From: a secondary endosymbiont of Trabutina mannipara
GTDB taxonomy: Bacteria; Pseudomonadota; Gammaproteobacteria; Enterobacterales; Enterobacteriaceae
DNA: 32,000 nucleotides
Reading direction: 5' to 3'
NCBI RefSeq assembly: GCF_900090215.1
Contig: NZ_LT594522.1
Coordinates: forward strand, 210,001-242,000
Every line of letters begins with the position of its first letter. The first letter of the stretch is position 1. A program made the position numbers and the translations under genes. Below, piece by piece: positions 12,398-31,584 of the stretch. Under the pieces are notes generated by a model. The model did not search any database. It worked only from the letters and a program-made list of their open reading frames with translations, and was not told the origin of the DNA.

Positions 12398-12745
12398 TTA
12401 AATCCCACTTAATTTGGCTCCAAATATGGCAACGCAGAGATTACTCATTACAATATCTGATATATTTTGTAAATCATAAAAATTCAATTTTTTTAAATTT
12501 ACTTTAAATTTACGATCATGCCACTCTTTTGGAGTATATACTTTAATTGATAAAGCGTGAATACTGTTATCTAAAATAGATTCCATAAGGGGGGTATAAA
12601 TAGTCTGCTGTTTTTTAACTTTGCTCATACCAGCGAACAACTCACTAACTGCAATAATATAAAAATATCTGCCGGTTACATTTACATAAACTTCATACCA
12701 CGAAAAATTTTTCATCAATAGCTTTTTTATTTCACTTATTTCCAT
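12398..12745 (-). CDS. ibaG: BolA-family protein IbaG (YrbA) with a roughly 30-residue C-terminal extension
   Basis: [75 protein letters not shown] aligns with E. coli IbaG ...[51 protein letters not shown]. The E. coli protein ends about 9 residues later, whereas this ORF runs on to 4 nt from the rnt stop. Confidence 0.85.
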
Positions 12746-14712: not shown

Positions 14713-15342
14713 ATGACTACTAAAAAGCGTTCTGCAAGTTCTATTTTTTGGCTAAAAGAACATTTTAATGATAAATATGTTCAGCATGCACAAAAAAAAC
14801 AACTGCGTTCTCGTGCTTGGTTTAAACTTCATCAAATACAACAAAGCGACAATATATTTTATCCAGGAATAACTGTAGTAGATTTAGGATCTTCACCTGG
14901 AGGTTGGTCTAAATATGTTGTTATGCAGATAGGCAACAAAGGTCGTGTTATTGCATGTGATATACTTCCAATGGAGTCAATAGTAGGCGTAGAGTTTATA
15001 CAAGGTGATTTTCGTAACCCATTAGTGTTAAATTCTTTGATTGAAGTTATAGGTAAAAAAAAAGTACAGGTAGTGCTATCAGATATGGCTCCTAATATAA
15101 GCGGTACTCCGGAAGTTGATATTCCTAAAACTATGTATCTAGTTGAATTAGCACTGGATATGTGTCTAGATGTTCTTGCACCAGGTGGTAGTTTTTTAGT
15201 TAAAATTTTTCAGGGAGAAAATTTTGATAAGTACCTGCATACAATAAGTTCTCTTTTTAAGAAGGTAAAAATACGAAAACCTGAAGCTTCTCGTGCTAGT
15301 TCAAGAGAAGTGTATATTGTAGCTAAAGAACGTAAATTATAG
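14713..15342 (+). CDS. rlmE: 23S rRNA (uridine2552-2'-O)-methyltransferase RlmE (FtsJ)
   Basis: 209-aa [42 protein letters not shown] and the SAM-binding motif [12 protein letters not shown] match, and the ORF ends [12 protein letters not shown]. It lies directly upstream of ftsH as in E. coli. Confidence 0.97.
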
Positions 15343-15401: not shown

Positions 15402-17267
15402 ATGGCGAAAAACCTAATTATTTGGTTAGTTATTGCAGTTTTATTAATGTCTGTATTCCAGAGTTTTGGTACCAGTGATTATAATAAACGTAAAGTAGAT
15501 TACTCTACTTTTATGTCAGAATTAAATAAAGATCAAGTTAGAGAAGCACGTATTAATGGTCGTGAAATTACAGTTACTAAAAAAAATAGTAATCGCTATA
15601 CTACCTATATTCCCATCAATGATCCTAAGCTACTTGATATTCTTTTGACAAAAAGCGTGAAAGTTATAGGTGAGCCTCCAGAAGAACCTAATATTATAGC
15701 TTCAGTATTTATATCTTGGTTTCCGATGTTATTACTCATTGGTGTCTGGGTATTCTTTATGCGGCAAATGCAAAGCGGCGGTAAAGGTGCTATTTCTTTT
15801 GGTAAAAGTAAGGCTAGAATCCTGACGGAAGATCAAATTAAAACAACATTTGCTGATGTTGCTGGTTGTGATGAAGCTAAAGAAGAAGTTAGTGAACTAG
15901 TAGATTACTTGCGGGAACCAAGTCGTTTTCAAAAACTTGGGGGTAAAATTCCCAAAGGAGTGTTAATGGTGGGTCCTCCTGGTACTGGAAAAACACTTTT
16001 AGCAAAAGCTATTGCAGGTGAAGCTAAAGTTCCTTTTTTTAACATTTCTGGTTCTGATTTTGTAGAAATGTTTGTTGGTGTCGGTGCTTCTCGCGTTCGC
16101 GATATGTTTGAACAAGCTAAAAAAGCAGCACCATGTATTATCTTTATTGATGAAATTGATGCTGTAGGACGTCATCGTGGTGCAGGACTTGGTGGGGGTC
16201 ACGATGAACGAGAACAAACTCTAAACCAAATGCTTGTTGAAATGGACGGATTTGAAGGAAATGAAGGAATTATCGTTATTGCTGCAACTAATCGACCAGA
16301 TGTCTTAGATCCTGCTTTACTTCGTCCTGGTCGTTTTGACCGTCATGTGGTAGTTGGACTACCAGATATTAGAGGACGAGAACAAATTTTGAGAGTACAC
16401 ATACGCCATGTGCCGCTTGCACCTGATATAGATGTCTTAGTTGTTGCTCGTGGTACACCTGGATTTTCAGGTGCTGATTTAGCTAATCTAGTAAATGAAG
16501 CAGCTCTATTTGCAGCACGTAGCAGTAAACGCATGGTATCAATGATAGAATTTGAAAAAGCAAAGGATAAAATTATGATGGGCGCAGAGCGTCGTTCTCT
16601 GGTAATGACTGAAGCACAAAAAGAATCTACAGCTTATCACGAAGCTGGACACGCTATCATTGGTCGTTTGGTACCAGAACATGATCCAGTTCATAAAGTA
16701 ACAATTATTCCTCGCGGGAGAGCCCTGGGTATTACCTTTTTTTTACCAGAAAAGGATACTATAAGTGCTAGCCGCCAGAAGTTAGAAAGCCAAATATCTA
16801 CCCTATATGGTGGTAGGTTAGCCGAAGAAATTATTTATGGTTCAGAAAATATTTCTACTGGTGCTTCTAACGATATCAAAGTTGCAACATCTATTGCAAG
16901 AAATATGGTAACCCAATGGGGTTTCTCTGAAAAACTTGGTCCTCTTTTATATGCAGAGGAAGAATGCGAAGTATTTTTAGGTCGTTCTGTAGCTAAGTCC
17001 CAACATATATCAGATGAAACTACACGCATCATCGATCAAGAAGTTAAATCATTAATTGAACGAAATTATATACGTGCACGTACACTATTGATGGATAATA
17101 TAGATATATTGCATGCAATGAAGGATGCATTAATGAAATATGAAACTATTAACGCGCCGCAGATCGATGAATTAATGAGCCGTAAAGCAGTTTGTCCACC
17201 ACCAGGATGGGATAATATTGTTTCCAGTACTAACTGTAAATTTTTATTTTATACTGATAGTTACTGA
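15402..17267 (+). CDS. ftsH: ATP-dependent zinc metalloprotease FtsH
   Basis: The ORF track opens at TTG 15366, but homology begins at ATG 15402: [22 protein letters not shown] compared with E. coli [22 protein letters not shown]. Walker A GPPGTGKT, Walker B IIFIDEID, the second region of homology and the zinc motif HEAGH are all present. The C-terminal tail is shorter and unrelated to that of E. coli. Confidence 0.96.
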
Positions 17268-17464: not shown

Positions 17465-17746
17465 ATGTATCGATTTCTATTAATTATTTTTATAGTAATA
17501 TCTATCGTACTTATTACGCTGATTATGCTGCAAAAAATTAAAGGTGCTAATAATGTAAGTACTTCGTCAAGTATAGGATCATCTAGTACCATACTAGGTT
17601 TTAAAAAATCTAGTAATTTTGTAACTCGTATTACATTTATGCTAGCAGCGCTATTTTTCATTATTAGCTTAATACTAGGAAAGCTAAATAATAAATATAT
17701 TTTAAAAAAAAATGGAAATAAAAGATCTAAAAAAGTTACCAACTAA
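17465..17746 (+). CDS. secG: Protein-export membrane protein SecG
   Basis: Homology starts at ATG 17465: MYRFLLIIFIVISIVLITLIMLQKIKGA compared with E. coli MYEALLVVFLIVAIGLVGLIMLQQGKGA, and ...FVTRITFMLAALFFIISLILG compared with FMTRMTALLATLFFIISLVLG. GAGGA at 17452-17456 lies 8 nt upstream. The TTG at 17450 used by the ORF track is probably not the start. Confidence 0.9.
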   Translation: MYRFLLIIFIVISIVLITLIMLQKIKGANNVSTSSSIGSSSTILGFKKSSNFVTRITFMLAALFFIISLILGKLNNKYILKKNGNKRSKKVTN

Positions 17747-19550: not shown

Positions 19551-22055
19551 ATGACAGATGTAAATATGAAATCGCTCGCTGCTGAAATACAGATTCCAGT
19601 GGATCACCTGATAAAGCAATTTGCTGATGCTGGTATTGATAAAACAGCAGCTGATTCTGTAACTGAGATGGAAAAAAAAATTTTTTTTGCGTATTTAAAC
19701 AATAGAAATATTCTGTCTAATAAATTAACTTTGCAACATAAAATACGTAGTACTTTAAATATTTCTTCTACAGGCGGTAAAAATAAATCGATACAAATTG
19801 AAGTACGCAGAAAGCGCAATTATCAACAAGTGCAAGAGCAAGCTGAAGAAAAAGCAAAGCGTGACGCTGAAGAAAAAGCAAAGCGTGACGCTGAAGAAAA
19901 AGCAAAGCGTGACGCTGAAGAAAAAGCAAAGTGTGACGCTGAAGAAAAAGCAAAGCGTAAAAAAGATAAAACTAAGCGTAAAGAACTAGCAGAATTTAAA
20001 CGCAAAGATAAAATGCATCATGAAGAAAAGCTTTATAAAAAAGCTGATAAAAAACGTATTTTTACTGAAAAAGTAGGTAATAATTTTTTTGATAATGCAT
20101 CTTTAGATGAAGATCTTATTAACTATATTGAAGGTGATCGTCGCCGTAATCCAGTTGTTAAATATAGCAATAAAAAAACAAGTAGCTTATCAGAAGAAGA
20201 TAATGCTGATATCGAAGAATCAAGAGCAGTAGGTCGTAAAAATAAAAGCAAAATAAGCACATTACTGCATAGTTTTAATAAGCCAACCAAAGTTTTGAAC
20301 CGCGATGTAATCATAGGTGAAACTATTACAGTAGCAGAATTAGCTAAAAAAATGGCTATAAAAGGATCGCAGGTCATTAAAAAAATGATGAAACTAGGTG
20401 CGGCTACTACTAGCAACCAAGTTCTTGATCAAGAAACTGCGCAACTAATAGCAGAAGAAATGGGTCATAATGTTATTCTACGTCTTGAAAACGAGTTAGA
20501 AAAATCATTAATGTATGAACGAAATACTGATACTCCAGAATTACGTGCGCCAGTAGTAACTATAATGGGACATGTAGATCACGGTAAAACATCTCTGCTC
20601 GACTATATTCGCATTGCAAAAGTGGCTGCAGAAGAGGTAGGTGGTATTACGCAGCATATTAGCGCCTATCATTTTAAAACAGATAAAGGCATGATAACTT
20701 TCATTGATACACCAGGTCATGCAGCATTTACAGCAATGAGAGCTCGTGGTGTGCAGATAACTGACATAGTAGTACTAGTAGTAGCTGCAGATGACGGAGT
20801 GATGCTGCAGACAATTGAAGCAATTAAGCATGCAAAAGCCGCTAAAGTACCGATAGTAGTTGCTGTTAACAAAATTGATAAACTGGAAGCAGATCCAGAT
20901 AGAGTAAAAAATGAACTGATACAATACGATCTTCTTCCAGAAGAATGGGGTGGTGAAAATCAATTTGTACATGTTTCTGCTAAAACTGGCTCTGGAATTG
21001 ATAAATTAATTGAAGCAATTTTGCTGCAAGCGGAAATTTTAGAACTAAAAGCAATCCACAAAGGAATGGCCTCTGGTGTCGTAATAGAATCTTTTTTAGA
21101 TAAAGGACTAGGTCCAGTTGCTATAGTGCTAGTACTTGAAGGTACTCTTAATCGGGGTGATGTTGTTATTTGTGGTATTGAATATGGTCGTGTGCGTGCT
21201 ATGCGCAATGAATTTGATTTCGATTTAGAATCTGCGGGACCATCTGTTCCAGTTAAAATACTAGGTCTATCAGGAATACCAGCTGCTGGTGATAAAGTAA
21301 CAGTAGTACGCGATGATAAAAAAGCACGAGAAGTAGCAATTTATCGCCAAGGTAAATTTAGGGAAATAAAATTAGCACTGCAACAAAAATCAAAACTGGA
21401 AAAAATGGAAAACATGTTCGCTATCACTAAAAGTGAGGTATCTGAACTAAACATCGTGCTTAAATCTGACGTACAAGGTTCAGCTGAAGCAATCAGCAAC
21501 GCATTGAAAAATTTATCAAACGATGAAGTAAAAGTAAAAATTATAGTTTCTGGTGTTGGTAGCATTAACGAAACTGACGTAACGTTAGCAGCAGCATCTA
21601 ATGCTATTATACTAGGTTTTAATGTTCGTGCAGATAATTATGTTAACAAGCTTCTTGAATCAGAAAAACTAGAAATACGCTATTACTCAGTAATTTATGA
21701 TCTACTTAATGAAGTAAAACAAGCGATGAATAGCATGCTATTACCAGCATACAAACAGGAAATAGTCGGGATAGCAAAAGTTAGTGATGTATTTAACTCA
21801 CCCAAATTAGGTGTTATTGCTGGTTGTATAGTAACTGAAGGAGTAGTTAAATGTCACAACCCAATACGTATTTTGCGTAAAAACATAGTAATTTATAAAG
21901 GTGAAATAGAGTCATTAAGACATTTTAAAGATGATGTTAACGAAGTTCGTAATGGTCTTACATGCGGTATCGGAATCAAAAACTATAATAATATAATTTT
22001 AGGAGATGTAATCGAAGTTTTTAAAAATGTTGAAATCAAAAATACTATTGCCTGA
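19551..22055 (+). CDS. infB: Translation initiation factor IF-2
   Basis: 834-aa ORF. The N-terminus [29 protein letters not shown] and the G domain ([29 protein letters not shown]) match. The C-terminus ...[17 protein letters not shown] compares with E. coli GDVIEVFEIIEIQRTIA. Confidence 0.98.
19842..19958 (+). repeat. In-frame 24-bp tandem array (about 4.9 copies of GCTGAAGAAAAAGCAAAGCGTGAC = AEEKAKRD) inside infB
   Basis: Copies at 19842-19865, 19866-19889 and 19890-19913 are identical. The copy at 19914-19937 has one C-to-T change (Arg to Cys). The copy at 19938-19958 is partial, with 21 nt identical. Confidence 0.95.
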
Positions 22056-22090: not shown

Positions 22091-22456
22091 ATGGCAAAAG
22101 AATATAGTCGTATACAGCGAGTTTCACAAGAGATAAAAAAAAATACTGCTATTATCTTACAGCGCGAAATTCAAGATCCTCGTATCAAAATAACAACAGT
22201 ATCCTACGTTAAAGTTTCTAGAGATTTAGCATCTGCAAAAATTTTTGTCACTTTTTTAAATAACGAACATCCTGAACAAGTTAAACATAATATACGTATC
22301 CTACAAGGAGCTGCGTACAAAGTACGCAGCCTGCTTGGTAAAGCAATGTACTTACGTATAGTACCAGAATTACATTTCATATATGATAATTCACTTTTAG
22401 AAGGAATACGTATATCTAAACTAGTGAGACAGGTTGTTCAAAATAAAAATAACTAA
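22091..22456 (+). CDS. rbfA: Ribosome-binding factor A
   Basis: 121-aa [34 protein letters not shown]...[15 protein letters not shown]...[22 protein letters not shown] aligns with E. coli RbfA. Confidence 0.96.
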
Positions 22457-23436: not shown

Positions 23437-23461
23437 ATAGATAATATGATTTATTATCTAT
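23437..23461. repeat. Perfect 9-bp inverted repeat (ATAGATAAT / ATTATCTAT, 7-nt loop) in the truB-rpsO spacer
   Basis: The arms are 23437-23445 and 23453-23461. The repeat lies 37 nt after the truB stop. No U-run follows it, so it may be an operator or an RNA hairpin rather than a canonical terminator. Confidence 0.5.
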
Positions 23462-23519
23462 AAGTAAATAGAGAGCTTAAGAGATATCGGCGCTCATCTA
23501 TTTAATTGGGAGTATTATA

Positions 23520-23789
23520 ATGTCTCTAAGTTTTGAAATTAAAAAAAAAATTATCTCTACTTTCGGCCGTAACGCTAAAGACAGCGGTTATACTGAAGTT
23601 CAGATAGCTATTTTAACTGCTCAGATTAGCCATCTGCATAATCATTTTATGGAAAATAAAAATGACCATCATAGCCGCAGGGGTCTCCTACGTATGGTTT
23701 CAAAGCGACGTAAATTGCTAGAATACTTAAAGAAAAAAGATATAGTACGTTATACCAACCTTATTGAACGTCTAGATCTTCGGCACTAA
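23520..23789 (+). CDS. rpsO: 30S ribosomal protein S15
   Basis: 89-aa [42 protein letters not shown]...[25 protein letters not shown] aligns with E. coli S15, which is the same length. GGGAG lies 8 nt upstream of the ATG. Confidence 0.97.
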
Positions 23790-26150: not shown

Positions 26151-27557
26151 ATGTCTAAAGTAGAAAAATATTTTTCCGATTTGGGGCTTAAAGCTCATAT
26201 ACTTAACGCACTTGCAGATCTAGGTTATGAAAAACCATCACCAATACAGTCTGCCTGTATTCCACATCTTTTAGCTGGACGTGATGTATTAGGTATGGCT
26301 CAAACAGGTAGCGGTAAAACTGCTGCTTTTTCTTTACCGCTGTTAAATAATATTAATCCAGAATTAGCGGTACCACAGATGTTAGTTCTAGCTCCTACTA
26401 GAGAACTAGCAGTACAGGTAGGTGATGCCTGTACAGATTTTGCTAAGCATATAAAAGGTGTTAATATAGTTTCCTTATACGGAGGACAACGTTATGACTT
26501 ACAATTACGCGCCCTGCGCTATGGGCCACAAGTTGTTGTAGGTACTCCAGGAAGACTTTTAGATCATTTAAAAAGAGGTACTCTAAACTTATCTAAGTTA
26601 AATGGATTAGTGTTAGATGAAGCGGATGAAATGTTGCGAATGGGGTTTATAGAAGATGTAGAAAATATTCTATCTAAGATACCAGCTAAACATCAAACTG
26701 CTCTATTCTCAGCTACTATGCCAGAAGTAATTCGTAGAATTACGCGACGGTTTATGAACAATCCATATGAAGTACGGATTCAATCCAGTATAAAAAACTG
26801 TCCAGATATCAGCCAATGCTATTGGATAGTTCAAGGAATACGCAAAAATGAAGCACTGGCTCGTTTCTTAGAAGCAGAAGATTTTGATGCAGCTATTATA
26901 TTTGTGCGTACTAAAAATGCAACGCTGGAAGTAGCAGAAGCTTTGGAAAAAAACGGTTATAATAGCGCTGCTCTCAATGGTGATATGAATCAAAATTTAC
27001 GAGAACAGACATTAGATCGTTTTAAAAATGGTCGCTTAGATATACTAATCGCTACTGATGTCGCTGCACGGGGACTAGATGTTGATCGCATTAGCTTGGT
27101 CGTCAACTATGATATTCCGCTCGATTATGAATCTTATGTTCATCGTATTGGACGTACCGGTCGTGCTGGTAGAGCTGGACGGGCACTATTATTTGTAGAA
27201 AACCGCGAACGACGTCTATTGCGTAATATTGAACGTATGACTAAGCTGACAATAAAGGAAGTAAAATTACCTACTGCAGAAATATTAAGCAGCCGTAGAT
27301 TAGCTAAGTTTGCAGATAAAGTACAAAACCAGCTAGAAAGTAACGATCTTAATATGTATCGCGCACTGTTAGCAAAATTGCAACCTGCGGCAGAAGAGCT
27401 AGATATGGAAACTTTGGCTGCAGCATTGTTGAAAATGGCCCAGGGAGAACGTCCACTTATCTTACCACAAGTTCCTAATAATAAAGTTCCTAATAATATT
27501 AAACGTCGTATTTTGCGACGTAATTTAATTGATCGCAGTAGGGGCAGCAGGCGTTAA
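26151..27557 (+). CDS. deaD: DEAD-box RNA helicase DeaD/CsdA, helicase core plus dimerisation region only (C-terminal RNA-binding domain missing)
   Basis: 468-aa ORF. The Q-motif region [26 protein letters not shown] is present, along with [15 protein letters not shown] and [13 protein letters not shown]. It is collinear with E. coli DeaD to ...[12 protein letters not shown], then ends after a short basic tail. The E. coli protein is about 160 residues longer. Confidence 0.93.
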
Positions 27558-28049: not shown

Positions 28050-29426
28050 TTACTTACCAATACAAAAGCTAGAGAAAATATTTTTCAGCAAATCATTAGA
28101 ACTAAATTCTCCTGTAATTTCACTAAGCATTTTTTGTGCTAACCGTAATTCTTCAGCTAGTAGTTCACAATAACAGGCGTTAACTAATTGCTCTTTCCCC
28201 TGAAATAAATGCTTAGCTGCATTTTTAAGTGCCTCTATATGACGGCGACGCGCTAAAAACTGTCCTTCAGTGCTACCAGTAAAACCATTAATTTGCTTAA
28301 GGTGTTCAAAAAGAAAGTTTAGGCCTATACCTGCTTTTGCAGAAAGAGTGATTATTGAGTAATCTTTTATTTTTCTTATGCCAATTTTTTCTCCTGTAAT
28401 ATCAGCTTTATTTCTTACTATAGTGACATCTATACCAGATGGTATACGTGCTATAAACTTCTGTATCATTTTAAGTGTTGTTTCGGTACTATCTATTTCT
28501 TCTTTACTATCACTATCAATTAATAATACATGATCTGCCTGTTTAATTTCACGCCAAGCACGCTCAATACCAATTTTTTCTACTTCATCTTCTGATTCGT
28601 GCAAACCTGCGGTATCGATTATATGCATAGGAATGCCGTTTATATGAATATATTCACGCAATATATCGCGTGTAGTACCAGCAACTGCAGTTACGATCGC
28701 TACCTCACGCCCCGCAATAGCATTCAGTAGGCTGGATTTACCGGCGTTAGGTTTACCAGCAATGACTACTTTAATACCTTCACGTAAAATACTTCCTTGA
28801 TGAGCTTCTGCTATTACCATATTAAGTCTGGTAATAATATCATTTATACTTGTTTCTATTTTACTTTTTGAAATAAAATCAATGTCTTCATCTGGAAAAT
28901 CGATAGCAGCTTCAACAGCTATGCGCAGATTAGTCAGCATTTCTACTAACTCATGAATACGGATAGAAAACTTGCCTTGCAATGAGTTGAATGCAGATCG
29001 AGCTGCCTGAACTGAACTAGCATCTATTAGATCAGCAATAGCCTCTGCCTGAGCAAGATCTAGCTTATTATTTATAAAGGCACGCTTAGAAAACTCTCCT
29101 GGATGGGCAATACGCACTCCTTGAAGCGATATAATTTGCTGCAATAGCAGATCTAAGATTATAGGACCACCGTGTCCTTGTAGTTCTAGAATATCTTCAC
29201 CAGTAAAAGAAAAAGGACCTGGAAAAAATAGGGCGATACCATGATCTATATGATTGCCGTTCATATCGCAAAATGGTAGGTATTCAGCCTGCCTGGGAAT
29301 TGGCAGCTTACCCAATAACATGCGTGCTACCGATGTAGCTAAAGGTCCAGAAACACGCAAAATACCTATTCCGCCACGTCCTTGCGGTGTAGCAATTGCA
29401 GTAATAGTATCAGTATCTATGCTCAT
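28050..29426 (-). CDS. mnmE: tRNA modification GTPase MnmE (TrmE)
   Basis: 458-aa [25 protein letters not shown], the G domain [18 protein letters not shown]...DTAGL...NKADI and the C-terminal FCIGK motif are present. It is collinear with E. coli MnmE and sits downstream of yidC as in E. coli. Confidence 0.97.
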
Positions 29427-29428
29427 AG

Positions 29429-29533
29429 CTATAGACCTCTTTTAAAAAGTACGCTATAAATAAACTTTTGCTGAATAATAGTTACAAAATTATTTACGAT
29501 GTAATACAATACTAAACCTGATGGTAATAATAG
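29429..29533 (-). other. yidC: Out-of-frame 3' end of yidC encoding the conserved last transmembrane segment
   Basis: The shifted minus-strand frame gives [34 protein letters not shown], compared with E. coli [34 protein letters not shown]. The switch point is the T7 run (A7 on the plus strand, 29534-29540). The stop at 29429-29431 lies 2 nt before the mnmE ATG. Confidence 0.9.
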
Positions 29534-31032
29534 AAAAAAATAGTAAATATAACTGGCATAAAAAACATAATTTTATGTTGTATTGGATCAGTATTGATCG
29601 ACATTTTATGAATAAAGAACATAGTCACACCCATCAGTGTCGGCAAAATATAGTAAGGATCTGGAGCAGATAAGTCATGTATCCACATACTAAAAGGAGC
29701 ATGATGTAATTCAATAGAGCTTGAAAGCATGTAATATAACGATAATAAAATAGGCATCTGTATTATTAGAAGTAGGAATCCACCAAAAGGATTAACCTTT
29801 TCTGCTTTATATAAAGCTATCATTTCTTTACTATATAGCTGTTTATTATCATATAAACGCTCTCGTATCGCTGTTAGTTTAGGCTGCAGAATACGCATTC
29901 TATACATTGAAGTATACTGCGATTTTGTAATAGGATACATAAGGCAACGTACGATAAAAGTAATGATAATAATAGAAACCCCCCAATTGCAAGTATAGCT
30001 ATATATAATAGTTAATATTTTAAATAATGGTTGATAAATGAACCATAACCAGCCATAATCGATTACAAGGTCTAAATAAGGGGCAATATCTGCCATCTTC
30101 TGAATTTTGGGACCAATCCATAATGATGCATTTAATTCTTTTTTGCTACCTGCTGCAATAATAACAGGAGTAGATTTAAATCCGATCTCAGCTTGACCGT
30201 TACTTAAATACGTTGTATAAAACGTATTTTTTCCTTGGGTAAAAGGAATCCAAGCAGTAGCAAAATATTGCTGTAGCATAGCGATCCAACCTCCATCAGT
30301 ATAGACGCTTAAATTTTTTACTTTAATTGCTTTAAAACTATACTTTTGATATTTTTTTGCAGTGGTAGAATAGGATGTGCCACGGTAGCCATGAATTGAA
30401 AAATTGCAATTTTTTATTTTTTTTGGGAAAATAATAGACTGTTTTAGTTTACCAAACAAAATTAGCTCTAATTGCTGCGTATTATTTGTGTTATTAACAT
30501 TATAATTGATGTTAATAACAAATTCACCGCGTTTTAAAATAAAAGTTTTTTTGTAAACAACACCATCGTAATCGACGTAAGTAAAAGGGACGCGTAACTC
30601 TTTCTGAGTATCCTCCATAATATAGGTATTTTTATTAGTTTTATAAAGCGGGCGAAAAATATTTGATTTATTTTTCTGACTATTTTTTACCGTTAGGCCG
30701 CTTTGAGCCTGATATACAAATTCATTAGATGTTTCAAGTAAATGAAAAGGTTGCAGTGAATCTAATTTATCTGAATAAGTTAACAGAAAAGCCTGCTCAA
30801 TATCACCACCGTAAGGGTTTATTTTTAGTGATAATACGTCAGTATTCACTGTAATAAACCTACCTTCATGTTCCCTAGGAACTTTATTGCTGTTGGGGTC
30901 TAACTCTTGTTGCATTTTATGCTGATTAGTATACTTAGAATAATATTCAGTGTCAGTTTTTTGCAAAAAAATGAAAAACACGCACAGCATAGCTATTACA
31001 ATAATTACAAGAATATTATATTGTGAATCCAT
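29512..31032 (-). CDS. yidC: Membrane protein insertase YidC, main reading frame (terminates prematurely after a frameshift in a homopolymer)
   Basis: 506-aa [19 protein letters not shown] compares with E. coli [67 protein letters not shown] and [12 protein letters not shown] are all conserved. After ...PVIFTIFF the frame reads YYYHQV* instead of the conserved [11 protein letters not shown]... Confidence 0.93.
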
Positions 31033-31078: not shown

Positions 31079-31435
31079 TTAAAAATGGAGACAATGGTAG
31101 TTCCATAATTTATCTAATGTTTCTGTTATGGCAGAATTATTTTTATAAAAATTTGTAAAGTCTTTTTTAGCAATAACTACAAAATCCATTGTAGGCAATG
31201 TATGCTGTTGCCGTCGAAAACTTTCGCGTATTAATCGTTTAATTTTGTTGCGTTCATGAGCCTTTTTTATATATTTTTTTGCTATAGTAAAACCAACTCT
31301 TGGATAACCTAATGTATTCAAGCGGCTAAGAATAAGAATATATTGCGTACCCACACGGTGAGGTTTCTGAAATACGAAAAAAAAATCATTAGAAGTTAAC
31401 AACCGTAACTTACGGGTAAATGCAATCTTAATCAC
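31079..31435 (-). CDS. rnpA: Ribonuclease P protein component, GTG start
   Basis: 118-aa ORF. (M)[29 protein letters not shown] compares with E. coli [29 protein letters not shown]. The RNR motif [16 protein letters not shown] is present. The GTG at 31433-31435 overlaps the rpmH stop codon by one base (TAGTG). Confidence 0.95.
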
Positions 31436-31584
31436 TAGTTTTCTTTAGAAGAAACAGTTAAATACGAACGTCCTTTAGCACGTCGTCGTGCTAAAATATG
31501 ACGCCCTTTTTTATTTGCCATACGAATTCTAAAACCATGGGTGCGATTACGTTTTAATACTGATGGTTGAAAAGTGCGTTTCAT
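31435..31584 (-). CDS. rpmH: 50S ribosomal protein L34 (49 aa; below the ORF-track cutoff)
   Basis: The minus strand has ATG at 31582-31584 and TAG at 31435-31437. [49 protein letters not shown] compares with E. coli [46 protein letters not shown]. Confidence 0.95.

Follow-up and report, generated by a model that had tools for sequence, protein, structure and literature searches.

Introduction

The insect endosymbionts Buchnera and Blochmannia are known to carry single homopolymer indels in otherwise intact genes (Tamas et al. 2008, quoted in PMC3017870 and PMC5009743). In B. vafer, visC carries a single homopolymer indel in an 11-A tract and the gene has been lost in a sister lineage (PMC3017870), which makes it the closest case to the locus described here and an exact precedent for the dilemma of telling erosion from rescue. 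Low-level frameshifting that compensates for an indel ('savior' frameshifting) is also known from the G7 run of the herpesvirus thymidine kinase gene (PMC5009743).

The heptamer U_UU.U_UU.C is listed as shift-prone in Escherichia coli, where it is employed by IS elements and under-represented in genes, and heptamers lacking stimulators promote frameshifting at 2–10 times the 0.055% background, i.e., at tenths of a percent (PMC4066793). Slippage of bacterial RNA polymerase (RNAP) prefers poly(T); the E. coli enzyme needs at least seven Ts (T7) to slip productively, with a reporter rescue of approximately 5%, and a +1 insertion at a T7 tract was found in 0.75% by mRNA sequencing (PMC6260861).

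Here, these systems are compared with the yidC locus of 'Candidatus Trabutinella endobia' (genome of 298 kb, LT594522), as found in a window of 32,000 nucleotides, the whole stretch of DNA that was analyzed. In free-living bacteria, the YidC insertase is essential. An earlier sequence-only reading had described a frameshifted yidC and offered three explanations: a homopolymer length error, a very recent lesion, or production of the full-length protein by transcriptional or ribosomal slippage.

Results

A single-base lesion places the last transmembrane helix of YidC out of frame

According to the ORF translation, yidC of Trabutinella encodes 506 amino acids (Table 1). The frame-0 product follows the native sequence as far as the E. 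coli F506 equivalent, at the end of transmembrane helix 5 (TM5), and then continues with YYYHQV followed by a stop. The frameshift maps to a run that reads A7 on the plus strand (29534–29540) and T7 on the sense strand. Beyond it, the −1-frame tail encodes the TM5–6 loop, TM6 and the short cytoplasmic end (E. coli residues 507–540), with the equivalents of Y517, N521, T524 and Q528 retained. The stop of the tail occupies 29429–29431, and the mnmE ATG (29426) lies 2 nt further on. With 506 + 34 open codons in a genome of 33% GC, the single-base lesion is the sole flaw in the reading frames. The earlier description of a yidC truncated by a 1-nt shift, with its C-terminal TM helix kept out of frame, was reproduced in all coordinates and translations. 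Likewise, one more T does repair the frame, as had been proposed: the identical protein results whether a T is added to the run or a C is placed behind it.

Table 1. Positions of yidC, its frameshift and neighboring features within the window.
Feature	Position	Strand	Remarks
yidC frame-0 ORF	29512..31032	-	deposited as SBT82068.1, 'Membrane protein insertase YidC'
Frameshift site	29533..29540	-	T7 (29540-29534), then C (29533)
Premature frame-0 stop (TAG) of yidC	29512..29514	-	six codons past the shift site
-1-frame yidC continuation	29429..29533	-	34 codons + stop
mnmE	28050..29426	-	downstream neighbor; intact, 458 aa; anchor for the Mikella comparison
Putative Shine-Dalgarno-like AAGAGG for mnmE	29436..29441	-	within the last yidC tail codons (AAA AGA GGT), 9 nt before the mnmE ATG; inferred from sequence
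rnpA	31079..31435	-	upstream neighbor; intact, 118 aa
rpmH	31435-31584		with rnpA completes the rpmH-rnpA-yidC-mnmE block

Possible loss of a C next to the run

At the frameshift site, all four relatives compared (S. glossinidius, Doolittlea, Gullanella and an E. coli-like contig) read TTY TTC CTN, with CC at the codon boundary. Each encodes YidC in a single frame, and the frameshift is common to none of them. The E. coli-like contig (L004, protein P0137) lies outside the clade; its candidacy as a clade member was ruled out and it served solely as an E. coli reference. Given the codons of the relatives, the one-step reconstruction is the deletion of a C beside a pre-existing T7 run. The missing base is thus one C of a former CC or one T of a former T8, and the loss of the C may be what occurred. 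The 1-nt frameshift itself stands; its location inside the homopolymer is less certain. As for the comparison with sister strains that had been suggested, Mikella, the only close relative at hand, is without yidC, and the four more distant relatives are in frame. Neither a protein scan nor a degenerate, clade-specific DNA pattern for rpmH retrieved sister strains from the GTDB genome collection, from which the clade is absent, and exact-product look-ups for MnmE and the truncated YidC of the window gave no second record.

Sequencing depth and other homopolymer runs in the window

The Trabutinella genome was obtained by Illumina HiSeq sequencing of DNA from pooled bacteriomes of 15–20 insects; SPAdes assembly with iterative read mapping gave one contig, covered 1216-fold (PMC5322300). 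The window has 40 further coding A/T runs of at least 7 nt (7–10 nt), among them in-frame T7/T8 runs in dnaJ (1298–1305) and ftsH (16737–16744), and no frame is broken at any of them; the about 24 other genes are all in frame. The deep Illumina coverage and the absence of frame breaks at other coding runs make a sequencing error at yidC very unlikely, and the explanation by a homopolymer length error loses further ground if it was a C that was lost, as may be the case.

The out-of-frame tail is conserved and the truncated YidC is predicted to be inactive

The 34-aa tail shares 77% identity over 31 aa with the C-terminus of E. coli-type YidC (pairwise E = 5.5e-19), and stop-free windows of 34 codons make up only 1.5% in the −1 frame of the genes of this window; the match is far above chance. 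Both the P1 domain and the 60KD_IMP core of the γ-proteobacterial YidC/Oxa1/Alb3 insertase were detected in the yidC product, the former as Pfam YidC_periplas (PF14849; 243 bits, positions 2–282 of 283) and the latter as 60KD_IMP (PF02096; 144 bits), of which the frame-0 product covers only 1–139 of the 163 profile positions. When the tail was joined, the PF02096 match extended to 1–162, with a gain of 33 bits, and the protein aligned end to end with the E. coli YidC structure 3wvf (E = 2.8e-197). The five-helix core (TM2–TM6) is accordingly not found in one frame, as TM6 sits in the −1 frame.

Alignment to E. coli YidC showed that the equivalents of the TM2 arginine (R366) and of T362 are kept, and the tail reads LVLYYIV, in which the Y517 equivalent is preserved. 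The TM2 arginine is functionally important in YidC. In E. coli, TM6 packs against TM2, TM3 and TM4, the Y517A exchange abolishes complementation and is lethal, and T362 is also important (PMC4124156). Since the truncated protein ends at the F506 equivalent, these TM6 contacts are lost with the remainder of the Pfam core, and the 506-aa YidC, devoid of the TM5–6 loop and TM6, should be inactive. As expected of an eroding pseudogene, yidC carries a mutation that costs the protein an essential part.

The identity of the tail to 120 homologues averages 70%, equal to that of the conserved core directly upstream. The claim that the shifted segment had suffered no secondary decay is borne out by this equality, at the low resolution that 34 residues afford. 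A tail as conserved as the core implies either a very recent lesion or selection still acting through a slipped product; with 34 residues, and with yidC kept in no close relative, the two are indistinguishable. Dating the lesion by the divergence of the tail was rejected as underpowered on the same grounds.

In the body of the gene there are five further runs of at least 7 nt, none of which has slipped. The ratio of YidC to MnmE divergence (dYidC/dMnmE) was 1.26 in Trabutinella vs. 0.68–1.05 in six other lineages, a weak signal based on two genes only, which might hint at a mild excess of YidC divergence.

The site is slippery and lacks stimulatory elements

The frame-0 codons AUU UUU UUC hold the heptamer U_UUU_UUC, of the X_XXY_YYZ type, and the site is at the same time a U7 run; a −1 shift or the addition of one U leads to the same native full-length YidC sequence. 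No element that could stimulate slippage was detected around it. The downstream 117 nt showed no significant RNA structure (−10.9 kcal/mol, z = +0.66), and neither did the upstream region (z = −0.89), where the fold ends 23 nt short of the run. No GGAGG-like or Shine-Dalgarno-like element was seen upstream of the shift site when the sequence was read directly, Rfam gave no match at the site, and promoter-like matches around it were no commoner than in shuffled sequence. Further, the two-frame arrangement is not kept in the four relatives, as would be expected of programmed −1 frameshifting, and the run of 7 nt is shorter than the at least 9 nt associated with high slippage.

By analogy with the rates reported from E. 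coli, this suggests that full-length YidC would amount to approximately 1%, and at most to a few percent. Rescue by transcriptional or ribosomal slippage, one of the explanations offered previously, is therefore mechanistically possible, owing to the U7 run and the heptamer, but not beyond a low level at a threshold run without a stimulator. The poly(A) tracts of Buchnera and Blochmannia that had been invoked as precedents are much longer than 7 nt.

Mikella endobia harbors an eroded yidC relic at the same locus

In the sister species Mikella endobia, the locus is organized as rpmH-rnpA-[594 bp]-mnmE. The 594-bp spacer has stops in all frames, and a tblastn comparison of the spacer with YidC yielded no match. 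At the DNA level, it contains a collinear chain of yidC remnants that scored 310 bits vs. 184 ± 25 for shuffled sequence, a value reached by 0 of 200 shuffles. An independent assembly of reads (L002) has the spacer in unchanged form. To judge from this chain, the spacer is an eroded yidC relic, i.e., yidC has eroded independently in a related lineage; in Trabutinella, the lesion count of the gene is one. FtsH of Mikella is intact (94% identical, with both TM helices kept). Based on the relic and on the intact, membrane-anchored FtsH, YidC is dispensable in this clade, and the premise carried over from E. coli that YidC is essential fails here.

As regards Trabutinella, its authors reported the loss of all transporters except one putative mechanosensitive channel, the absence of envelope genes and a total of 27 pseudogenes (PMC5322300). 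According to this gene-loss report, clients of YidC are few; SecG and FtsH are retained. In the same study, ORFs of at least 80% of the reference length were annotated as genes, and the 506-aa ORF was annotated as YidC (PMC5322300). Neither the Trabutinella nor the Mikella genome paper mentions yidC. Apart from the MnmE of Mikella, the protein collection contained no YidC or MnmE closer than those of Sodalis. A third member of the clade is the 281-kb symbiont of Pseudococcus viburni. An ENA fragment (P0256) from the same 90% cluster as the truncated YidC was considered as a second Trabutinella assembly and rejected, as it is an unrelated 54-aa peptide that shares the cluster through an artefact of clustering.

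Discussion

A young lesion as the probable first step of yidC erosion

We lean towards a genuine, young and leaky one-base deletion at the T7–C junction, which would represent the first step of yidC erosion; this is the probable, if by no means secure, reading of the locus. Among the three earlier explanations, the very recent lesion is the best supported, and its recency is what we infer. Under standard decoding, the gene would give a 506-aa YidC without the TM5–6 loop and TM6, whereas RNAP slippage (+1 U) and −1 ribosomal slippage would each deliver the full-length protein, and such an incidental leak may explain how the mutation could become fixed. Nothing indicates an evolved, programmed recoding signal. 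Selection for YidC would be weak in an intrabacterial symbiont from whose membrane proteome almost nothing is left. Most likely, Trabutinella yidC stands at the first stage of an erosion already completed in Mikella.

Two observations concern the time course. The gene is flawless but for one base, with five other runs in its body unslipped, which speaks against erosion. It also stayed intact in Trabutinella long after it was lost in Mikella, suggesting that it was useful in this lineage until recently.

Alternatively, the frameshift could be stably maintained, with trace amounts of YidC made by +1 U transcriptional and/or −1 ribosomal slippage and with selection keeping both body and tail, similar to the conserved homopolymer frameshifts of Blochmannia and Buchnera. 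We regard this as unlikely, although it is worth weighing: body and tail show no decay, the heptamer is a bona fide shift-prone site (used by IS elements and avoided in E. coli genes; PMC4066793), the run is at the T7 threshold of a polymerase that prefers poly(T) (PMC6260861), and both routes restore the native sequence. Moreover, a low dose could suffice for few membrane clients, and SecG, FtsH and, according to the authors, the mechanosensitive channel are still kept. However, rescue has been shown for tracts of at least 9 nt, with approximately 30% full-length transcripts (cited in PMC3017870), which are far longer than the present run, and the site has no stimulatory element. Further, Mikella lives without YidC, the frameshift occurs in no relative examined, and +1 T reversion should be frequent, so that revertants would be expected to take over if full dosage mattered. 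More doubtful still is the stricter version of this idea, i.e., a fixed and selected dosage device in which YidC is made solely by combined RNAP and −1 ribosomal slippage on the stimulator-free U7/U_UUU_UUC site. If true, this device would supply an insertase that is normally essential in traces only, and the notion of rescued frameshifts would come to include runs far shorter than the ones documented in Blochmannia and Buchnera.

It is rather improbable that frameshifted and in-frame alleles coexist in polyploid cells or among the pooled bacteriomes, the assembly reporting the majority allele and a minority supplying YidC. The DNA did come from 15–20 individuals (PMC5322300), sites next to homopolymers are indel hot spots in endosymbionts (88.7% of indels lay in homopolymers in one Blochmannia comparison; PMC3622351), and a gene without any other damage is in keeping with selection that continues on a subset of copies, but it is the frameshifted allele that the consensus shows at 1216-fold coverage, which leaves intact copies in a minority. 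We give very little credence to an artefact of sequencing or assembly that conceals an intact yidC of 534 aa. It would account for a lesion adjoining a 7-nt homopolymer, for the perfectly preserved tail and for the otherwise sound state of a gene that is essential in E. coli; it conflicts with the depth, chemistry and read mapping of the assembly and with the 0/40 count at other coding runs, a lost C would not be a miscount of run length, and the loss of the gene in the sister removes the argument that yidC must be intact. Equally remote is a functional 506-aa YidC without TM6, its tail being an undecayed remnant or kept for mnmE expression. The authors' length rule admits the ORF as YidC, other proteins of this genome are shortened at their C-terminus as well (e.g., DeaD with 468 aa and RecA with 330 aa), and the AAGAGG motif lies inside the last tail codons. 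Against this, the conserved five-helix core includes TM6, which touches TM2, TM3 and TM4, E. coli YidC is inactivated by the lone TM6 change Y517A (PMC4124156), the match to the Pfam core stops at 139/163, and a role in mnmE expression explains only the last few conserved codons rather than all 34.

Implications

Both the deposited record and UniProt present the 506-aa 'YidC' (SBT82068.1) as a normal gene; as a core helix is missing, it should be flagged as frameshifted. Together with the Mikella relic, the young lesion favored here would mean that nested, intrabacterial symbionts of mealybugs are losing the YidC insertase. YidC is dead in Mikella and yet membrane-anchored FtsH persists, which raises the question of the insertion route of the membrane proteins that remain: Sec alone, spontaneous insertion, or factors of the host or of Tremblaya. 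The phenomenon as such is well known, is an ordinary event in shrinking genomes and opens no new question. From a practical point of view, sequencing metadata combined with a sister genome can resolve findings of an essential gene broken at a homopolymer without access to reads.

Comparison with known systems

As in the Blochmannia and Buchnera cases, yidC belongs to an AT-rich, reduced genome of an insect endosymbiont and is otherwise undamaged, with a single indel at a poly(A)/poly(T) tract shifting the frame. With visC it shares the ambiguity between a first step of erosion and rescue by polymerase slippage, as well as the previous loss of the gene in a sister lineage. It differs in the length of its run, which is 7 nt compared to tracts of at least 9 bp in Blochmannia (11 A in visC), and in being a sense-strand poly(T) rather than a poly(A) tract. 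Also unlike those cases, it may be the flanking C that was lost, the frameshift is common to no relative, and it is known here from the genome sequence alone.

The canonical U_UUU_UUC heptamer, on which a −1 shift yields native YidC, recalls programmed −1 frameshifting in E. coli dnaX and in the IS3/IS911 transposases. In contrast to these, the yidC site is accompanied neither by a downstream hairpin or pseudoknot nor by an upstream Shine-Dalgarno-like stimulator, and the relatives use one frame. Its frame-0 product is without evident function, and the site would therefore be corrective at best rather than a regulated two-product system. In the herpesvirus thymidine kinase gene, as in yidC, the gene is knocked out by an indel within a short homopolymer and very low slippage may give enough product; there, the low product has been demonstrated and is selected under drug pressure, whereas the leak from yidC is predicted and its benefit hypothetical. 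The yidC relic of Mikella, also a nested mealybug symbiont, involves the same gene and locus (rnpA-yidC-mnmE); unlike that relic, Trabutinella yidC is at the single-lesion stage, with a coding sequence that is still recognizable and open in two frames.

The yidC frame break and its out-of-frame end

'Ca. Trabutinella endobia' (LT594522; 298,471 bp) is a gamma-proteobacterium of a mealybug, where it resides within Tremblaya cells (PMC5322300). The gene order of the window is dnaK'-dnaJ-rpsT-ileS-recA-alaS-tyrS-rnt-ibaG-ribE-greA-rlmE-ftsH-secG-nusA-infB-rbfA-truB-rpsO-pnp-deaD-mnmE-yidC-rnpA-rpmH, and all of these genes are uninterrupted ORFs except yidC. The sequence-only reading had described yidC as broken by one nucleotide, with its C-terminal segment intact in another frame; coordinates and translations alike were reproduced exactly. 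At the break the sense strand reads ACT ATT TTT TTC TAT TAT TAC CAT CAG GTT TAG, and the frame-0 product is native as far as F506, the end of TM5, and lacks residues 507–540, that is, the TM5-6 loop and the whole of TM6 (E. coli numbering). Two bases separate the stop of the out-of-frame tail from the mnmE ATG at 29426.

The tail was 77% identical to the C-terminus of E. coli-type YidC over 31 residues (E = 5.5e-19). Once it was joined, the Pfam 60KD_IMP match grew from profile positions 1–139 to 1–162 of 163 (144 to 177.5 bits), and the joined protein aligned end to end with the solved E. coli YidC (3wvf; E = 2.8e-197). In the −1 frame of the window's genes, stops occur at 12.4% per codon (on average one per eight codons) and only 1.5% of 34-codon windows are open; the tail is no chance open frame. 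Apart from the frameshift yidC is flawless, and the tail is as well conserved as the core (mean identity to 120 homologues, 70% vs. 70%), in line with the earlier remark that it shows no secondary decay.

In the deposited annotation the truncated ORF of 506 aa stands as a normal 'Membrane protein insertase YidC' (SBT82068.1); the genome authors counted genes as pseudogenes only when their length fell below 80% of the reference (PMC5322300). The repaired 534-aa sequence was absent from the collections searched, and yidC is unmentioned in the Trabutinella genome paper and in the main text of the Mikella paper. SBT82068.1 sits in a '90% identity' protein cluster represented by an unrelated 54-aa ENA peptide (P0256, L005:828-992), and homology searches therefore miss it.

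Coordinates of features at the yidC locus, elsewhere in the window and on related contigs
Feature	Position	Strand	Remarks
yidC frame-0 ORF	29512-31032	minus	506-aa YidC homologue, by translation
A7 (T7 in sense strand)	29534-29540	plus	site of frame break
yidC tail	from 29533, stop 29429-29431	minus	34 codons, −1 frame
AAGAGG, Shine-Dalgarno-like, for mnmE	29436-29441	minus	within last codons of tail
rpsO start, A10	23541-23550		in frame
rlmE, A9	15055-15063		in frame
secG, A9	17704-17712		in frame
rbfA, A9	22135-22143		in frame
infB, A9 then T8 directly	19672-19688		in frame
rnpA, T9 (sense strand)	31377-31385		in frame
infB tandem repeat	19842-19958	plus	24 nt, 4.9 copies, 97% identity; AEEKAKRD ~5x, N-terminal IF2
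tpke11 sRNA	700-771	plus	between dnaK and dnaJ; Rfam 56.7 bits, above gathering score
Ribosomal S15 leader	23454-23576	plus	upstream of and overlapping rpsO start; Rfam 45.2 bits, above gathering score
BolA/IbaG-like ORF	12398-12745	minus	115 aa; Pfam BolA match ends at residue 74
DeaD	26151-27557	plus	468 aa; DEAD, Helicase_C and dimerisation domains kept
Eroded yidC pseudogene (rnpA-mnmE spacer)	L001:4408-5000 (Mikella LN999831)		594 bp; same sequence in L002
Mikella FtsH	L009:3310-5199 (Logan SRR33480052)		629 aa
MnmE, E. coli-like contig	L004:2496-4199 (ENA ERZ27313641 k141_20637)		567 aa

Among the other features, tpke11 and the S15 leader are both kept in a 298-kb genome. The BolA/IbaG-like ORF carries a C-terminal extension of ~40 aa, possibly arising from loss of the original stop codon. 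Compared with the E. coli protein of 629 aa, DeaD is missing the long C-terminal extension.

Nature of the lesion

Illumina HiSeq 2000 paired reads, 1216-fold in coverage and mapped iteratively, gave the chromosome as a single contig (PMC5322300), and the other 40 of the 41 coding A/T runs of 7–10 nt in the window, the rpsO A10 and several A9/T9 included, are in frame. A homopolymer length error, one of the options first suggested, is thus very unlikely, and the frameshift is almost certainly not a sequencing error.

The lesion had been placed inside the T7/A7 run. One added T does restore the native protein, but an inserted C gives the identical product, and the Phe-Phe-Leu codons of S. glossinidius, Doolittlea, Gullanella and an E. 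coli-like contig, all in a single frame, are TTY TTC CTN, with CC across the codon boundary. Loss of one C would therefore give ...TTTTTTTCTA... in a single step; the other route, a C-to-T change creating T8 followed by T loss, takes two, each likely in the Trabutinella genome. Judged from these codons, the lesion may be something other than a change in run length. The E. coli-like contig (rpmH-rnpA-yidC-mnmE) encodes an MnmE whose G and helical domains are each matched in two stretches, probably an assembly artefact.

Loss of yidC in Mikella endobia

Mikella endobia, the sister lineage, is the closest relative (MnmE 82–84% identical; GreA, RecA and RpmH clustering with the window's at at least 90% identity), and its locus reads rpmH-rnpA, 594 bp, mnmE. 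This spacer gave no tblastn match to YidC and has stops in all three frames. Further, it holds collinear yidC DNA remnants (chain 310 bits vs. 184 +/- 25 in 200 shuffles, 0/200 reaching 310; best HSP 44.6 bits vs. a shuffled maximum of 32.8), ends in the codons LQQNIIYRLLEKRGII* directly upstream of mnmE, and is identical in the independent read assembly SRR33480052. On these remnants, yidC is long dead in Mikella; the AAGAGG motif within the tail may be why only this end stays recognisable there. Mikella FtsH is intact, with both N-terminal TM helices and 94% identity to the window's, on a contig whose encoded GreA matches Mikella's exactly.

Need for YidC and potential for slippage

The premise that YidC is indispensable is not borne out for this clade, which changes the weight of the finding. 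Trabutinella has lost all transporters but one putative mechanosensitive channel, and has 0 envelope-synthesis genes and 27 pseudogenes (PMC5322300); YidC should therefore have few clients, and the genome is evidently still shedding genes. In a rough comparison, the YidC/MnmE divergence ratio against S. glossinidius was 1.26 in Trabutinella and 0.68–1.05 in six other lineages, weakly in line with a reduced need for YidC. In E. coli YidC, TM6 (~residues 513–532) contacts TM2, TM3 and TM4, and Y517A alone abolishes complementation (PMC4124156). The out-of-frame tail keeps equivalents of Y517, N521, T524 and Q528, and the truncated 506-aa protein would probably be inactive.

If RNA polymerase adds one U to the U7 run, the codons become AUU UUU UUU CUA. 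The frame-0 codons AUU UUU UUC contain the canonical heptamer U_UUU_UUC, at which a −1 tandem slip of two tRNA-Phe gives ...IFFLLLPSG; rescue by either route is mechanistically possible, with the same product. U_UU.U_UU.C is listed as shift-prone, used by IS elements and under-represented in E. coli genes, with an efficiency >0.1% without stimulators; stimulator-free heptamer motifs reach only 2–10 times the 0.055% background (PMC4066793). For E. coli RNA polymerase, which prefers poly(T) over poly(A), productive slippage needs at least T7; insertion rescued a reporter at ~5% (T7) and 10% (T8), and mRNA sequencing detected 0.75% insertion at a T7 tract (PMC6260861). By these E. coli data, the long runs in intact core genes should make transcripts more heterogeneous than the yidC run does.

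No stimulator was found: folding of the 117 nt starting at the run was no stronger than in shuffles (z = +0.66), the 87 nt upstream gave z = −0.89, their weak hairpin stopping 23 nt short of the run, no Shine-Dalgarno-like stimulator precedes the run, and Rfam has no match at the frameshift site. Taken with the E. coli rates, this would put full-length YidC at around 1%, or possibly a few percent. The slippage proposed earlier thus has its mechanism available, but only a trace yield is expected.

Interpretation and comparison with known cases

The best-supported account is that yidC was already nearly dispensable when it took its first lesion, a real and young one-base deletion, which would have been tolerated through the small need for YidC and a sequence leaking a little full-length product. 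This agrees with one of the reader's options, a very recent lesion. The main rival is a stably maintained frameshift, with trace YidC from slippage still under selection; the otherwise flawless gene, a tail conserved like the core and the retention of yidC long after Mikella's loss all speak for it. The tail is 34 residues long and yidC is retained in no close relative, so these data do not separate 'recent' from 'still selected'. A further possibility is that the symbionts, polyploid and sampled as a pool, carry in-frame and frameshifted alleles side by side.

Of most interest beyond the frameshift itself is the ongoing loss of YidC among nested mealybug symbionts: in Mikella the gene is dead, yet a membrane-anchored FtsH persists. 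For endosymbiont genes, both frameshifts at A/T runs and the possibility that slippage rescues them are already well documented; Trabutinella yidC is a new instance, absent from the genome paper and shown as a normal gene in database entries. It matches visC of Blochmannia vafer, where a single homopolymer indel affects a gene lost in the sister lineage (PMC3017870).
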